Assembly: GCA_001029795.1 (NCBI GenBank)
Contig: CP011216.1
Coordinates: 70,903-134,902, forward strand
DNA from: a candidate division Kazan bacterium GW2011_GWA1_50_15
Lineage (GTDB): Bacteria > Patescibacteriota > Kazan-3B-28
Direction of reading: 5' to 3'
DNA length: 64,000 bases
A program made the position numbers and the translations under genes. This document shows, piece after piece, positions 15,408 through 19,973 of the stretch. Within the stretch, counting starts at the first letter, position 1, and the number at the start of each line of letters is the position of its first letter. Under the pieces are notes generated by a model. That model was not told the origin of the DNA. It saw nothing but the letters and a program-made list of their open reading frames with translations, and did not search any database.

Positions 15408-18400
15408 ATGGAGAGTTTACATGGGGGCAGACCGGGGTTTGTTTCGCAGGAGGATGCGGGGAGACCGTCAACGCAAGATGGCGGGGTTTTGGATATCCAA
15501 CGGAAGATAGAGGCCCTGCAAGCGGCCGAAATAAAACAGCTATCAAACGGCGAGGCGGTTGCCGGTGAGTCCGAGCCACCTTACGAGGTAATCCCAGACC
15601 AAGAGAGGGCAGAGATAGAAGCCATCGGGCGGGCAGCGGCTACCGTCGAGACCAGAGAACGCAACTGGCGGGAGTTACAAGGGACCTCTTTGCGCGCCGA
15701 ATTGGCCCGGGCTGAACAAGCTTATTTGATGGGGAAAGCCATCCCAGAGTATTTGCTCCAGAATCCAGAATCTAAACCTTGGGTAGAAGAAGCTGGTTTT
15801 GTAGTGTTGGATTTGACCCCATTTACTGGGCTGGCCGAGGCCGAGATGCGGGAGGAAGGAAAAGGTCAGGGGGGTAAAGGAGCCCAACGAGTTAATAATT
15901 TGATCCGTAGCGTGTTCGGTTTGATCGATATTAAAGCTCGACCGGCAGGAGGGGAGGTGGTGGGGTTCGCTGGTGACGAAGTGAATTATGTTTTTCGCGG
16001 ATCCGGATACAAAGAGCGAATGCTACACTTTGCTTCCCAGGTACGTGAGGCGATGCAAGAGCGCAAGGATGTGCAGATCAGTGGTGGTGTGGCCGCCGGT
16101 CCGGTGCTGTTTGGCTATTTGGAAATTAGTGATAAGCGGAATTTACCCATTGTGTTGGGGGAGACGGTGGTCCGGGCCAAAAAGTTGCAAGGTAATGCCA
16201 CGGCCGGTGATATTTATGTGGCGGATAATTTATTACCACTGCTGCCAGAGGAAGCCAAAATAGCTCGCGGTAGCGGAGTGGCGCTGGAGTATTATCAGAA
16301 TTATGAGGTCGTGGGTGAGTATTACGATGAGCAGCGCAAGCATGAAGCTGAAGAGACCAGCAGGGGTCGGACCAGCTTTGCCGAGATCGAGCGGCGGGCC
16401 AAATTCTTGCATCCCAGTTTGAATTTCGATCTCAGGAGCGAAGGGCTCAAGCGTCATCTATTCGACGCAGAGCGAAAATCCGCCTCGCTCGTGTTTGCCC
16501 GGTTGCATAATTTCCGTGAGATGCAGGCCCAGATCTTAGAAGAAGTAGCTGCCGGGGAGATATCAACCACATTGCAGAAATTAGAGCAATTTCTGGGGCA
16601 GGTGAATCAATTGGCGCACAAGCATCATATGTTACTGGAGAAATTCGTGCCGGATGATAAACCGAAGATAGTGCTTTTTGGCCAACGTACCCCACCGGCC
16701 GCACGGGCGATGAAAACATCTTTTGGTATCCTCGACATTGCCGACCGTATGGGGTTGGATATTAGTATTGGGATTAGCTCTGGCAAGGTCTATCGGGGGA
16801 TGACGGGGGTGGTAGCCGAGGTGCATGGCAGTTTGCCACCTGAAGAAACCAAAGAGGAGTTGGGCTTTATTGGAGATGCTGCGAATGTTGCGGCCCACTT
16901 TGCCAGCGAAACGCCAGTCGGTCGGATCCGTACTGATCGCTATACCATACTTGATGCTGAGGATACTCTACGCATTGAAGCCGAGGAAGTCCCTGGGGGC
17001 CAGGTATTAAAGAGCCGCCGTGGGCATGGTCACCCCTATGAGATCAAGCGAGTGGAAAGCTTTGGGGAAACTCTGGAACATACCAGTGGAGCCCGATTAG
17101 TTGGGCGCAACGCACAAGTAGAACTTATTAATCGCACTATCGATGAGGCCATCCGCGAGAAATGCCAACGGGTTGTGGTGGTCTCGGCCGAGGCAGGAGA
17201 GGGCAAGTCGCTTTTAACTGACACGATCATTACCGAGCGCTATCTCGAGCGTCACCCCCGGCGTGACAATGTCGAGGCGTTCAAGGGTAAAAGCTATAGT
17301 GATAGCGAGAATACTGCCTATCAACTATGGCGGGGGGTGGCTCGTAAGTTATTTAATGTCGAGGACAAAGATACTCCTGCCGAAGTGTTAGTCAGGATAG
17401 AATCTGAACTGACAAAGTTAGATCCAAACTACACTCAATACGCTCAGTTGATGGCGGAGAGCTTTCGTCTGGCTAAGGTTGAGGTAGAAGATAGCCAGCG
17501 TTTCCCGGGCTTTGTCGGAAAAGCGGCGGAGATATTTAGCCGGATGCTGGACGAGCGGTCCAAAGACAAACCAGTGCTGGTAGTGTTTGAAGATATCCAT
17601 TGGGCGGATCATCCTTCGCTGGAGTTGCTGAAGTATGTTCTAGTGCAAACCAAAGACAGCCGGGTGGTTTACGACTTGGTCATGCGGCCGCACGCGGAAA
17701 AACTGAAATTCTTGCGGATCGATCCAGAGCGGCGGGTTGATATCGAACTGGGGCCACTAGAGAAAAAAGATTGGGCAAATTTCATCTTGGCGCATTTCTA
17801 TATAAAGGGGATGAGGGAGCTGGCCGAGCATGAGTTGGCCGGAGATACGAGTTGGAGGAGCGATTTCCAGAGTGAGACCTACAAACGCATCCGTGCCAAT
17901 GAGCGATTGCGCGATATGACATTTAAGCTTTCGGACGGGAATCCTTTCCAAGGCCGGGCCAGTTTGAAAGGGCTGACTTATTATCATGAGGTTTATCCCG
18001 ATCGGGTAAACCCCAAGACGAAAGAACCATATCGGTTCCTAGTGCCCTATGGCAGTAACGAGTATCGGATCCGGGACTATATTGACGAAGCTACAGTCAA
18101 AGAATTAAGCGAAGGGACCGGCGAGGGTCTACGCGACGCGTTTCGGTCTCTGCCTAAGCGGGCGCAGCAGGTGTTCAAATTCGCAGCATATCTGGGACGG
18201 GATTTTTCCCTAGCGGATGTGGCGGAGCTGGGGGAAATGAGCTACGAACAACTTGGCGAATATATGGAGTTGGGCAGGCGGCGCAACCTGATCGAGGATA
18301 GGGATGAGCTGACTCGTGAAGAGCTATCATTCACTCACGAACGCATTTGGGAGGCCGTTCACAACATTACGGCCGATATTTTGGTAAGCGTAGCCGGCCG

Positions 18401-19973
18401 AGAATTCGTTATCTCGGATGAAGAGATATCTCGTCGGGCGGGGGAACTGATCGAACGCAAGTATGGCGCAGACCGCCTGGAGGATCTGGCGCGGCTATTT
18501 GGCGGTAGCGATAATTTTCTCAAAGCTATCCACTACAAAATTTTGTTGGGGGATAGGAACTTTGCCCGAGAAGATGTGGTGCACTACGGTATCGCTATCA
18601 ATACTTACAGTGATGCTATCAAGATATTCAAAGAAAACTTTATTGAGCAAGATAGTTCAGCTGATAGCACGACCTCTATTGCCAGACAAGAACAAAAAAA
18701 TCGTCGTCGGCGTGAAAATTGGGCTGGATTAAGCGAGACGGAAACACAACACGTTGTCAGTGACTTTATTGAAGCCCACGAAAAATTGGCACGGGTGTAC
18801 TTGCAGAGTGGTTATACACATTACGGTGATGCGCTTGAGATAGTAGGCAGAGGGGTTGAGGCTTTGAACAGGTTTGAGACTCAGATAAAAGAGCCGATTC
18901 GTCAAATAAATCTGCGGTTAATGTTGGCCGCCATTGATACCACGGCGCATCGATTCTCGGGTAATATTAAAGGTGCGCTGGAGCTGGCAGAGAAGTATGC
19001 TGACGGAATCGTAAAGCAGGCTGACACAATGTTAGTTGGTAGGTCAGAACAAGGTCACTCAGAGATTAAAACATTGACAAGCAATCTAGCTAGTTTCTAC
19101 GCCAACTACGGTACCTGTGAATCCAAGTCCAACAATTGGGACGGGGCGTTGGCGCTCTATGACAAGGCTTTAGTCTATGCTGAGTTGGCCGGTGATACAA
19201 AAAAGTGGTACCTCACGACTAATGCTAAAGTCTGGACTTTGGGACGCCAAGGTAAAGTGGATGAAGCCATCCGGCTGGGAAAGGAATTGTTGGAAGTAAG
19301 TGTAAAGAATGATTACAAATCTGGTATTCCCTTCTTAAAAAGTAACTTGGGTGAATTCCACAGGCGGCAAGGGGATTGGCAACAAGCTAAGAACTATCTT
19401 TCTGAGGCGCTGGAGATGGCTCGGGATTGGTCACCGGCTCAGGAGATAGGTATCTATACAAATCTGGTTAGCGTATTGGAGGCCGAGGGTAACTTTAGTG
19501 AAGCGCTCCGGGTTATGGATTTGACGATTGACGCTCTGGGGCAGAACAACGGTGACCGGCGTACAACAGGAGACATGGAACGACATAATCGGTACGTGGC
19601 TGAACGAGCGTTCATTCTGGCCAAGTTAGGCCAGTTCGAAGCAGCTATGGCAGTGGCGCAGAATGTACCTACCACTCAATTGACTAATCAAGCGACTAAG
19701 GGGTTTGTGGCCTTAGCTGAGGCGCTATGCGATGCCGGTCTTGGGGTAGAACCAGAGCGTACTCGGGCCAAATTCGTCGATAGTGTTGCTACCCTCAAAC
19801 AAGGTGGCGGGAGCCCAGAGGCTCTGATTGAGAGTGCATTATGGGAGCGTTCAATTGGTGGTGAGAGGGAATGTCAACGTTTGTTGACCGAAGCATTGAC
19901 TGCTTCAGAGCGTCAGGGAGAATATGGGTACTCTAAAAAAATCCGGGAGTTGATGTTGTCCCCGGACGAATAA
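15408..19973 (+). CDS. Large signalling protein: tandem class-III nucleotidyl-cyclase homology domains (second degenerate) + STAND/AAA_16 NTPase + C-terminal TPR-like repeats
   Basis: CHD1: FVVLDLTPFTG / GFAGDEV / GGVAAGPVLFGY...GETVVRAKKLQ. CHD2 lacks the first metal Asp: SLVFARLHNF / GISSGKVYRGMTG / GFIGDAANVAAHFAS. P-loop AEAGEGKS and Walker B VVFEDIHWAD typical of AAA_16. Helical repeats at C-terminus. Confidence 0.55.
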   Translation: MESLHGGRPGFVSQEDAGRPSTQDGGVLDIQRKIEALQAAEIKQLSNGEAVAGESEPPYEVIPDQERAEIEAIGRAAATVETRERNWRELQGTSLRAELARAEQAYLMGKAIPEYLLQNPESKPWVEEAGFVVLDLTPFTGLAEAEMREEGKGQGGKGAQRVNNLIRSVFGLIDIKARPAGGEVVGFAGDEVNYVFRGSGYKERMLHFASQVREAMQERKDVQISGGVAAGPVLFGYLEISDKRNLPIVLGETVVRAKKLQGNATAGDIYVADNLLPLLPEEAKIARGSGVALEYYQNYEVVGEYYDEQRKHEAEETSRGRTSFAEIERRAKFLHPSLNFDLRSEGLKRHLFDAERKSASLVFARLHNFREMQAQILEEVAAGEISTTLQKLEQFLGQVNQLAHKHHMLLEKFVPDDKPKIVLFGQRTPPAARAMKTSFGILDIADRMGLDISIGISSGKVYRGMTGVVAEVHGSLPPEETKEELGFIGDAANVAAHFASETPVGRIRTDRYTILDAEDTLRIEAEEVPGGQVLKSRRGHGHPYEIKRVESFGETLEHTSGARLVGRNAQVELINRTIDEAIREKCQRVVVVSAEAGEGKSLLTDTIITERYLERHPRRDNVEAFKGKSYSDSENTAYQLWRGVARKLFNVEDKDTPAEVLVRIESELTKLDPNYTQYAQLMAESFRLAKVEVEDSQRFPGFVGKAAEIFSRMLDERSKDKPVLVVFEDIHWADHPSLELLKYVLVQTKDSRVVYDLVMRPHAEKLKFLRIDPERRVDIELGPLEKKDWANFILAHFYIKGMRELAEHELAGDTSWRSDFQSETYKRIRANERLRDMTFKLSDGNPFQGRASLKGLTYYHEVYPDRVNPKTKEPYRFLVPYGSNEYRIRDYIDEATVKELSEGTGEGLRDAFRSLPKRAQQVFKFAAYLGRDFSLADVAELGEMSYEQLGEYMELGRRRNLIEDRDELTREELSFTHERIWEAVHNITADILVSVAGREFVISDEEISRRAGELIERKYGADRLEDLARLFGGSDNFLKAIHYKILLGDRNFAREDVVHYGIAINTYSDAIKIFKENFIEQDSSADSTTSIARQEQKNRRRRENWAGLSETETQHVVSDFIEAHEKLARVYLQSGYTHYGDALEIVGRGVEALNRFETQIKEPIRQINLRLMLAAIDTTAHRFSGNIKGALELAEKYADGIVKQADTMLVGRSEQGHSEIKTLTSNLASFYANYGTCESKSNNWDGALALYDKALVYAELAGDTKKWYLTTNAKVWTLGRQGKVDEAIRLGKELLEVSVKNDYKSGIPFLKSNLGEFHRRQGDWQQAKNYLSEALEMARDWSPAQEIGIYTNLVSVLEAEGNFSEALRVMDLTIDALGQNNGDRRTTGDMERHNRYVAERAFILAKLGQFEAAMAVAQNVPTTQLTNQATKGFVALAEALCDAGLGVEPERTRAKFVDSVATLKQGGGSPEALIESALWERSIGGERECQRLLTEALTASERQGEYGYSKKIRELMLSPDE

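Follow-up and report, generated by a model that had tools for sequence, protein, structure and literature searches.

Full-length soluble adenylyl cyclase (sAC; ADCY10, sACfl) joins a C1-C2 catalytic core to a predicted STAND module with a P-loop, and the role of this module in the full-length enzyme is still unresolved (PMC12802110). The STAND proteins of the MalT clade are activated by passing from an autoinhibited ADP form to an inducer-bound multimer of the ATP form (PMC6468293, PMC4381067), and a sAC-like, bicarbonate-activated cyclase of Chloroflexus (Kobayashi et al.) is cited in PMC11006738. Here we compare with these systems a 1521-aa protein encoded in a stretch of 64,000 nucleotides of contig CP011216.1 from a candidate division Kazan bacterium, hereafter called the window. 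The protein is identical to AKM84553.1/KKW25627.1 of candidate division Kazan-3B-28, a lineage within the Candidate Phyla Radiation (CPR), occurs in identical form on 18 public contigs, the longest of 602,646 bp, and its current record names are 'hypothetical protein VE98_C0001G0096' and 'Tetratricopeptide repeat protein'. Our analysis gives this record a specific identity as a sAC-type signalling protein, a highly divergent bacterial member of a family whose architecture is known and widespread. Its parts are as follows (evidence in brackets).

15408-19973 (+), coding sequence of the 1521-aa sAC-type protein (ATG start, AGGA 10 nt upstream of the ATG)
15408-15689 (+), N-terminal extension, aa 1-94, acidic and of low complexity (alignments; low model confidence at the fragment start)
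15690-16286 (+), C1-like domain, aa 95-293, with D135 at 15810-15812 and D190 at 15975-15977 (sub-threshold Pfam match, orthologues, PDB profile matches, alignments, model)
16287-16466 (+), C1-C2 linker, aa 294-353, of low confidence and mostly helical (model; aligns with the sAC linker region)
16467-17063 (+), C2-like domain, aa 354-552, with R365, K412, G486, N493 and H497 (clade-only profile, alignments, residue tally)
17094-17759 (+), STAND nucleotide-binding domain, aa 563-784, with the conserved R760 (Pfam AAA_16, invariant residues, strand order of the model)
17187-17210 (+), Walker A AEAGEGKS, aa 594-601 (sequence)
17577-17609 (+), Walker B LVVFEDIHWAD (sequence)
17760-18413 (+), STAND helical and winged-helix domains, aa 785-1002, with a low-confidence loop at aa 862-905 (AlphaFold model; match to 6mfv)
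18414-19958 (+), arm and tetratricopeptide-repeat (TPR)-like helical repeats, aa 1003-1517, about 25 helices (Pfam TPR, model, fold matches)

Two cyclase-homology domains of the sAC type

An earlier note, made from the letters of this DNA, had described two consecutive cyclase-homology domains (CHDs) resembling the C1/C2 pseudo-heterodimer of eukaryotic adenylyl cyclases, and had named a domain search as the way to expose a spurious resemblance. That search came out borderline, because on the single sequence Pfam Guanylate_cyc (PF00211) reached 18.9 bits against a cut-off of 21.9, and over aa 206-280 only, thus missing the gathering score. The second domain had no Guanylate_cyc match in the scan of the full protein and gave an E-value of 0.23 when searched alone, and no single member of the eight-member clade to which the protein belongs passes Pfam on this domain. 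The cyclase assignment is nevertheless rescued by orthologues, profiles and fold. On domain 1 two orthologues, P0001 and P0002, reach 32.1 and 27.3 bits and so exceed the Pfam cut-off, and a profile of domain 2 built from the clade alone (n=8) matches Pseudomonas aeruginosa CyaB (3r5g, E 4.3e-8) over nearly its full length, as well as Cya2 (2w01, E 1.3e-5) and human sAC C2 (E 4e-4).

The AlphaFold model of aa 90-558 (pLDDT 73.7, pTM 0.78) led to the same family. Its top 24 PDB matches in Foldseek are all the catalytic core of human sAC, the best of them with E 7.6e-25, a TM-score of 0.74 and 16% identity over about 481 columns, and C1-C2 of AC9 ranks after sAC. Both CHDs are therefore real on the evidence of orthologues, clade-only profiles and the model, and because the sAC core tops the fold matches, the two domains are predicted to form a head-to-tail pseudo-heterodimer of the sAC type within the chain. 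Alignment, profile searches, and structure prediction with fold search thus agree on the tandem arrangement proposed earlier; the likeness to eukaryotic enzymes stands as far as the pseudo-heterodimer is concerned, with the qualification that sAC (ADCY10), and not the group of membrane adenylyl cyclases, is the closest known relative. When the two domains were compared by BLASTP, no significant similarity was detected, as is expected for an ancient C1/C2 pair, and the two halves are recognisable as paralogues only through their family.

The size of this family was assessed by an exhaustive HMMER profile search with the N-terminal region of three Kazan-type proteins against 1.84 billion representatives. 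It returned 753 cluster representatives at E<=1e-3, with matches on C1, on C2 or across both; most of the matches among those listed were 1200-1400 aa long with two matched stretches, and 146 of the best 150 spanned both cyclase domains. On these numbers the architecture is an established one and not a novelty. Relatives of about 1350 aa, several of them named Anaerolineae by their source, carry two Guanylate_cyc stretches, AAA_16 at about residue 435 and TPRs, the full set being recognised by Pfam in P0003, P0004 and P0006, and when 21 sequences are aligned, the two halves of the window protein fall on the two cyclase domains of these relatives. The architecture shared with the Anaerolineae proteins (P0003-P0020) is identical, the alignment runs from C1 to the TPRs, and the window protein shares Walker A, Walker B and the D...D / N pattern with them. 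The differences lie in sequence: identity is only about 20-25%, a large score gap sets the Kazan clade apart, and the relatives, unlike the window protein, pass Pfam strongly and mostly keep the sAC residues Arg416 (145/146), Thr405 (112/146) and Lys95 (92/146). The N-terminal extension of the window protein is absent from the Anaerolineae-type relatives and from sAC.

What is new, as judged from the profile search, is a highly divergent clade of about six clusters, in which a single member, the CPR (Kazan) one, is taxonomically identified. The clade is small (six 50%-identity clusters at E<=1e-30), its members are 29-38% identical to one another, and its last member scores E 1e-53 while the next family protein follows at 4.5e-13. 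A word-indexed homologue search with the N-terminal alignment returned nothing, and it took exhaustive HMMER searching to reach the family. No relative turned up when GTDB species genomes were scanned with the full-length alignment; in the same genome collection the relatives of SecA were at most 59% identical and came from many phyla. Two metagenome scans, one with a protein alignment and one with a degenerate DNA pattern for GDxANVAAHFA aimed at variants with the active-site His described below, also returned nothing, which says little because they likewise missed samples that are known to contain the gene.

Mycobacterial cyclases of the Rv0386 type have a single CHD, which needs homodimerisation, followed by an ATPase, TPRs and a C-terminal LuxR-type helix-turn-helix (HTH) domain. 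The window protein resembles them in the fusion of a cyclase domain to an AAA_16/STAND ATPase and helical repeats, and differs in having two CHDs and no HTH. An Rv0386-type identity was therefore ruled out, since neither Pfam nor NCBIfam gave a GerE/LuxR match. In the accessible text of the actinobacterial cyclase survey PMC2447327, searches for Rv0386, tandem domains and TPR found no match outside the reference list.

Active site and proposed working

Residues were mapped by aligning the family profile to human sAC (4clf), which gave one stretch covering sAC 17-469 at E 3.4e-64. Conservation was tallied over 146 other family representatives spanning both cyclase domains, taken from the best 150. 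The roles of the sAC residues are those given in PMC12867704 (Table 1) and PMC12250328, which also describe K95 and R176.

sAC D47, metal: window D135; Asp in 146 of 146 relatives
sAC D99, metal: window D190; Asp in 146 of 146
sAC K95, bicarbonate site: window G186; Lys in 92 of 146
sAC K144, pyrophosphate: window S225; Ser in 83 and Lys in 27 of 146
sAC R176, bicarbonate switch: window K258; mostly hydrophobic (Ala 43, Val 37)
sAC K334, base: window K412; mixed (Ala 35, Lys 33)
sAC D339: window D417; mixed (Asp 43)
sAC T405, base: window G486; Thr in 112 and Gly in 6 of 146
sAC N412: window N493; Asn in 143 of 146
sAC R416, alpha-phosphate and transition state: window H497; Arg in 145, Ser in 1 and His in none of 146

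As in full-length sAC, the chain of the window protein runs from C1 through a linker to C2 and then to a STAND module with a P-loop, and only C1 keeps the metal-binding Asp pair. The motifs quoted in the earlier note are present, VLDLTPFTG holding D135 and GFAGDEV holding D190, and both Asp are invariant in every alignment; in the second domain the first Asp is indeed lost, the corresponding position in VFARLHNF being R365. The counterparts of sAC K334 and N412 in C2 are K412 and N493. D135, D190 and N493 are found in all eight clade members, and K412 in six of them. The GDAANVAAHFAS-type helix proposed for the second domain is present at aa 489-500 and is not fully canonical, since its Arg position is taken by His497 (codon CAC at 16896-16898). 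Of the Asn-x3-Arg pair that C2 should contribute, the protein thus has the Asn and lacks the Arg.

The departures from sAC are the low identity of about 16%, the substitutions Arg416 to His497, Thr405 to Gly486, Lys95 to Gly186 and Arg176 to Lys258, the extra 94-aa N-terminal extension, an insertion of 11 residues in the C2 hairpin, and a bacterial instead of an animal host. R244 had been considered as the equivalent of sAC Arg176 and was rejected, because the explicit sAC alignment places Arg176 on K258 and leaves R244 in a gap of sAC. Neither residue of the bicarbonate-binding pair is therefore retained, and with Gly at the Lys95 position activation by bicarbonate is not expected. Animal sAC orthologues without K95 or R176 respond to pH and not to bicarbonate (PMC12867704).

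Of the eight clade members, only the window protein, P0001 and P0002 have His497, and the five more distant ones keep Arg. This change from Arg to His is the sole truly unusual feature of the protein, and the sub-clade that carries it uniquely is new. With His at this position the enzyme probably turns over slowly or in a way that depends on pH and protonation. A natural Arg-to-His substitution on an otherwise conserved active site also offers a ready-made test of how essential the arginine is.

The predicted core contains one candidate active site, to which C1 would contribute D135 and D190 and C2 would contribute K412, N493 and, in place of the transition-state Arg, His497; the symmetric second site is degenerate, and the STAND module that follows has intact Walker A and Walker B motifs. 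From the alignments and models we read the protein, with moderate confidence, as a regulated, working cyclase with cAMP as its default product. Several findings weigh against this interpretation. The transition-state Arg is His in the window protein and its two closest orthologues, and in other class III cyclases the loss of this Arg strongly lowers turnover. The equivalent of Thr405 is Gly and that of Lys144 is Ser, the latter being common in the family. No cyclic-nucleotide receptor or phosphodiesterase was found among the roughly 45 open reading frames (ORFs) scanned in the 64 kb of the window. Finally, how C1 and C2 are oriented towards each other is taken from a model based on the 21-sequence alignment, and sAC structures were part of the AlphaFold training data.

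These points also feed a less likely but serious alternative, in which C1-C2 would bind metal-nucleotide without useful cyclisation and serve the STAND switch as an input or output module that senses ATP or another nucleotide or is purely structural, the output of the protein being a protein-protein interaction or oligomerisation in place of a second messenger. The loss of a nearly invariant transition-state Arg speaks for such a pseudo-cyclase, as do Gly at the Thr405 and Lys95 positions, Ser at the Lys144 position, cyclase domains too drifted for Pfam to recognise on the single sequence, and the lack of a cyclic-nucleotide effector among the window genes, although that scan covered 64 kb of the genome only. 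It is further favoured by a tandem-domain protein of P. aeruginosa, 6yii, which matches the two-domain model (Foldseek E 9.2e-13, TM-score 0.55) and which its depositors describe as a class III adenylyl-cyclase-like ATP-binding protein, not as a cyclase; described ATP binders are therefore among the structural relatives. The relationship to 6yii is weak in sequence (family profile E 7e-8 on one sub-stretch). The conservation within the clade points the other way, because the metal Asp pair, the Asn and mostly the Lys persist among members that differ as widely as stated above, which is the pattern of a working active site. In addition, the five distant members keep Arg, so that the clade as a whole looks catalytic, and His can in principle supply the positive charge.

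We give little credence to a bolder version of the catalytic reading, according to which His497 would be functional and catalysis gated by pH, the protonated form stabilising the alpha-phosphate, or the chemistry or substrate would have changed. The protein might also be the chief or even the sole source of second messengers in a host-dependent CPR bacterium of about 0.6 Mb, turning a host cue sensed by the TPRs into a cyclic nucleotide.

The regulatory half of the protein agrees with what the earlier note had read from its motifs. Pfam identifies AAA_16 at aa 563-747 (E 4e-14) and TPR_12, TPR_2 and TPR_MalT at aa 1232-1416, and both Pfam and the model confirm the STAND P-loop AEAGEGKS, the Walker B VVFEDIHWAD (aa 725-734) and the TPR array. 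The sequence marks of a MalT/AAA_16-type STAND NTPase are present, namely a Walker A of the form GxxGxGK[ST], an acidic pair followed by HW, and an Arg after strand 4; in 12 aligned sequences G597, G599, K600, E728, D729 and R760 do not vary. The helical-repeat region proved shorter than the 600 aa first supposed, measuring about 515 aa (aa 1003-1517) in the model. Scans with Pfam and NCBIfam found no LuxR/GerE or other HTH, and in the model the C-terminus consists entirely of helical repeats, as had been expected from the absence of a visible LuxR HTH.

For aa 540-1521 the AlphaFold model has a pLDDT of 80.2, and its best PDB match is 6mfv (PH0952, E 1.1e-10), a MalT-clade STAND with a TPR sensor in which the nucleotide-binding, helical, winged-helix, arm and TPR domains follow in the same order. 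Avs3 and domain III of MalT (1hz4) are also among the fold matches. The overall TM-scores against the MalT-clade structures are low (0.30-0.41) because the relative positions of the domains differ. The effector here is a tandem cyclase core and not a DNA-binding domain. A separate 190-aa protein of the window, encoded at 5417-5989 (+), consists almost wholly of canonical TPR repeats, and its scores on TPR models are far better than those of the repeats in the large protein.

A working cyclase under STAND control could operate as follows. The TPR sensor would bind a ligand or protein inducer, which, as in MalT-clade STANDs, would release autoinhibition and let the nucleotide-binding oligomerisation domain swap ADP for ATP and oligomerise. 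The change in the STAND module would then switch the pre-assembled C1-C2 core allosterically, yielding a cyclic nucleotide, most likely cAMP. In STAND cyclases with a single CHD, multimerisation could itself build active sites by joining two domains. In the window protein the catalytic dimer is already contained in one chain, and control is therefore expected to be allosteric or by autoinhibition, as suspected for full-length sAC. Bacterial homologues could serve as models of the sAC STAND module; many less divergent ones exist, so the window protein is not uniquely useful for this purpose.

Gene, expression signals and genomic setting

The rest of the window encodes core machinery, including ribosomal proteins, TGT, SecDF, SecA, aminoacyl-tRNA synthetases, FtsA/FtsZ, ribonucleotide reductase and ClpP. 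The remark of the earlier note that such a large signalling protein stands out in a compact core-function region is fair, the host being a CPR bacterium with a reduced genome. The orthologues P0001 and P0002 (61% and 59% identity) lie at the same chromosomal position, their contigs sharing the order of cyclase-type gene, convergent 73-aa and 430-aa genes, and SecD. An NTP-transferase gene precedes SecD in the window and in the orthologue locus L001, and the upstream side varies between the window and the orthologue loci. The G+C content of the gene is uniform with its flanks. On sequence evidence this is a vertically inherited chromosomal gene and not part of a mobile or defence island. A reduced-genome lineage thus keeps a 4.6-kb signalling gene, about 0.76% of the 602,646-bp contig, at a conserved position, which suggests that cyclic-nucleotide or nucleotide sensing matters to these organisms.

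This setting bears on a further explanation, an anti-phage or conflict-system sensor resembling Avs or Pycsar, in which a phage protein would be detected by the STAND-TPR part and an alarm nucleotide for a killing effector would come from the cyclase domains. Defence systems often contain STAND NTPases fused to effector domains (PMC7159879), PADLOC gave weak matches to Pycsar cyclase models (PycC, E 2.8e-7), and the STAND-TPR model matches Avs3 (8dgc, E 5.8e-8). The PycC matches, however, cover the generic cyclase fold only, and the Avs3 match the generic STAND fold only (TM-score 0.16-0.17). None of the adjacent genes encodes an effector of the TIR, transmembrane or nuclease type; they code for ribosomal proteins, TGT, SecDF, the NTP-transferase and two small surface or transmembrane proteins without PADLOC or Pfam matches. 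The position is kept in relatives of about 60% identity, unlike in variable defence islands, and the G+C content does not deviate. We consider a role in defence very improbable and rejected it on the core-gene context, the weak and generic PADLOC matches, and the lack of an effector neighbour or island.

Both convergent neighbours, a 73-aa ORF at 19991-20212 (-) and a 430-aa ORF at 20228-21520 (-), start with a hydrophobic helix, and convergent membrane-anchored proteins, one small and one of 430-450 aa, also lie next to the P0001 and P0002 genes. Pfam and PADLOC gave no match on either ORF of the window, and the exact 430-aa sequence, as delimited here, had no match in the protein collection. 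Directly upstream of the large gene, ORFs of 142, 187 and 328 aa (13133-15238, +) had no Pfam match at E<=1e-5 and none in PADLOC, and neither of the orthologue loci, L001 and L085, has them upstream of its gene.

Two sites precede the start codon.

15269-15301 (+), hairpin with an 8-bp GC-rich stem and an 11-nt loop, with TTTTTT after it (read off the sequence itself)
15311-15338 (+), promoter-like site, TTGATT, 16-nt spacer and TG-extended TATGAT (consensus match alone)

The gene had been credited with its own extended -10 promoter and with insulation by terminators. The extended -10 element TGGTATGAT does exist at 15330-15338, as part of the TTGATT-16-TG-TATGAT site; such sites do not exceed the number seen in shuffles (3 found against 4.9 expected), which leaves the promoter weakly supported. 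The upstream hairpin with its T-run is a plausible intrinsic terminator of the 328-aa gene and was missed by the terminator scan because its loop exceeds 8 nt. Insulation on the other side did not hold up, as the scan found no terminator downstream of the gene, whose stop codon lies 17 nt from that of the convergent 73-aa ORF. Between the promoter-like site and the start codon, at 15344-15356, a small hairpin CGCTTCCAGAGCG is followed by GGTTTTTCTA; this could be a leader or attenuator structure, or due to chance. An Rfam scan of the window detected four tRNAs only and no riboswitch near the gene. The tRNAs are a cluster at 6066-6671 (+) of tRNA-Thr(GGU), tRNA-Tyr(GUA) and tRNA-Thr(UGU), and tRNA-Val(CAC) at 43799-43874.

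Among the other genes of the window, the L7/L12 ORF at 11204-11740 (+) encodes 178 aa, and its Pfam domains begin at residue 58; the relative at L085 has 177 aa, so either the lineage has a conserved 55-residue N-terminal extension or both start codons were called too far upstream. A gene for the NrdR repressor is found immediately upstream of that for a class II (B12-type) ribonucleotide reductase with a TSCPD domain (33378-36722, +). A 479-aa ORF without Pfam matches at 57826-59265 (+) is followed by a 975-aa protein at 59333-62260 (+), the sole match of which is one DUF11 repeat near the C-terminus; both are probably large surface proteins.

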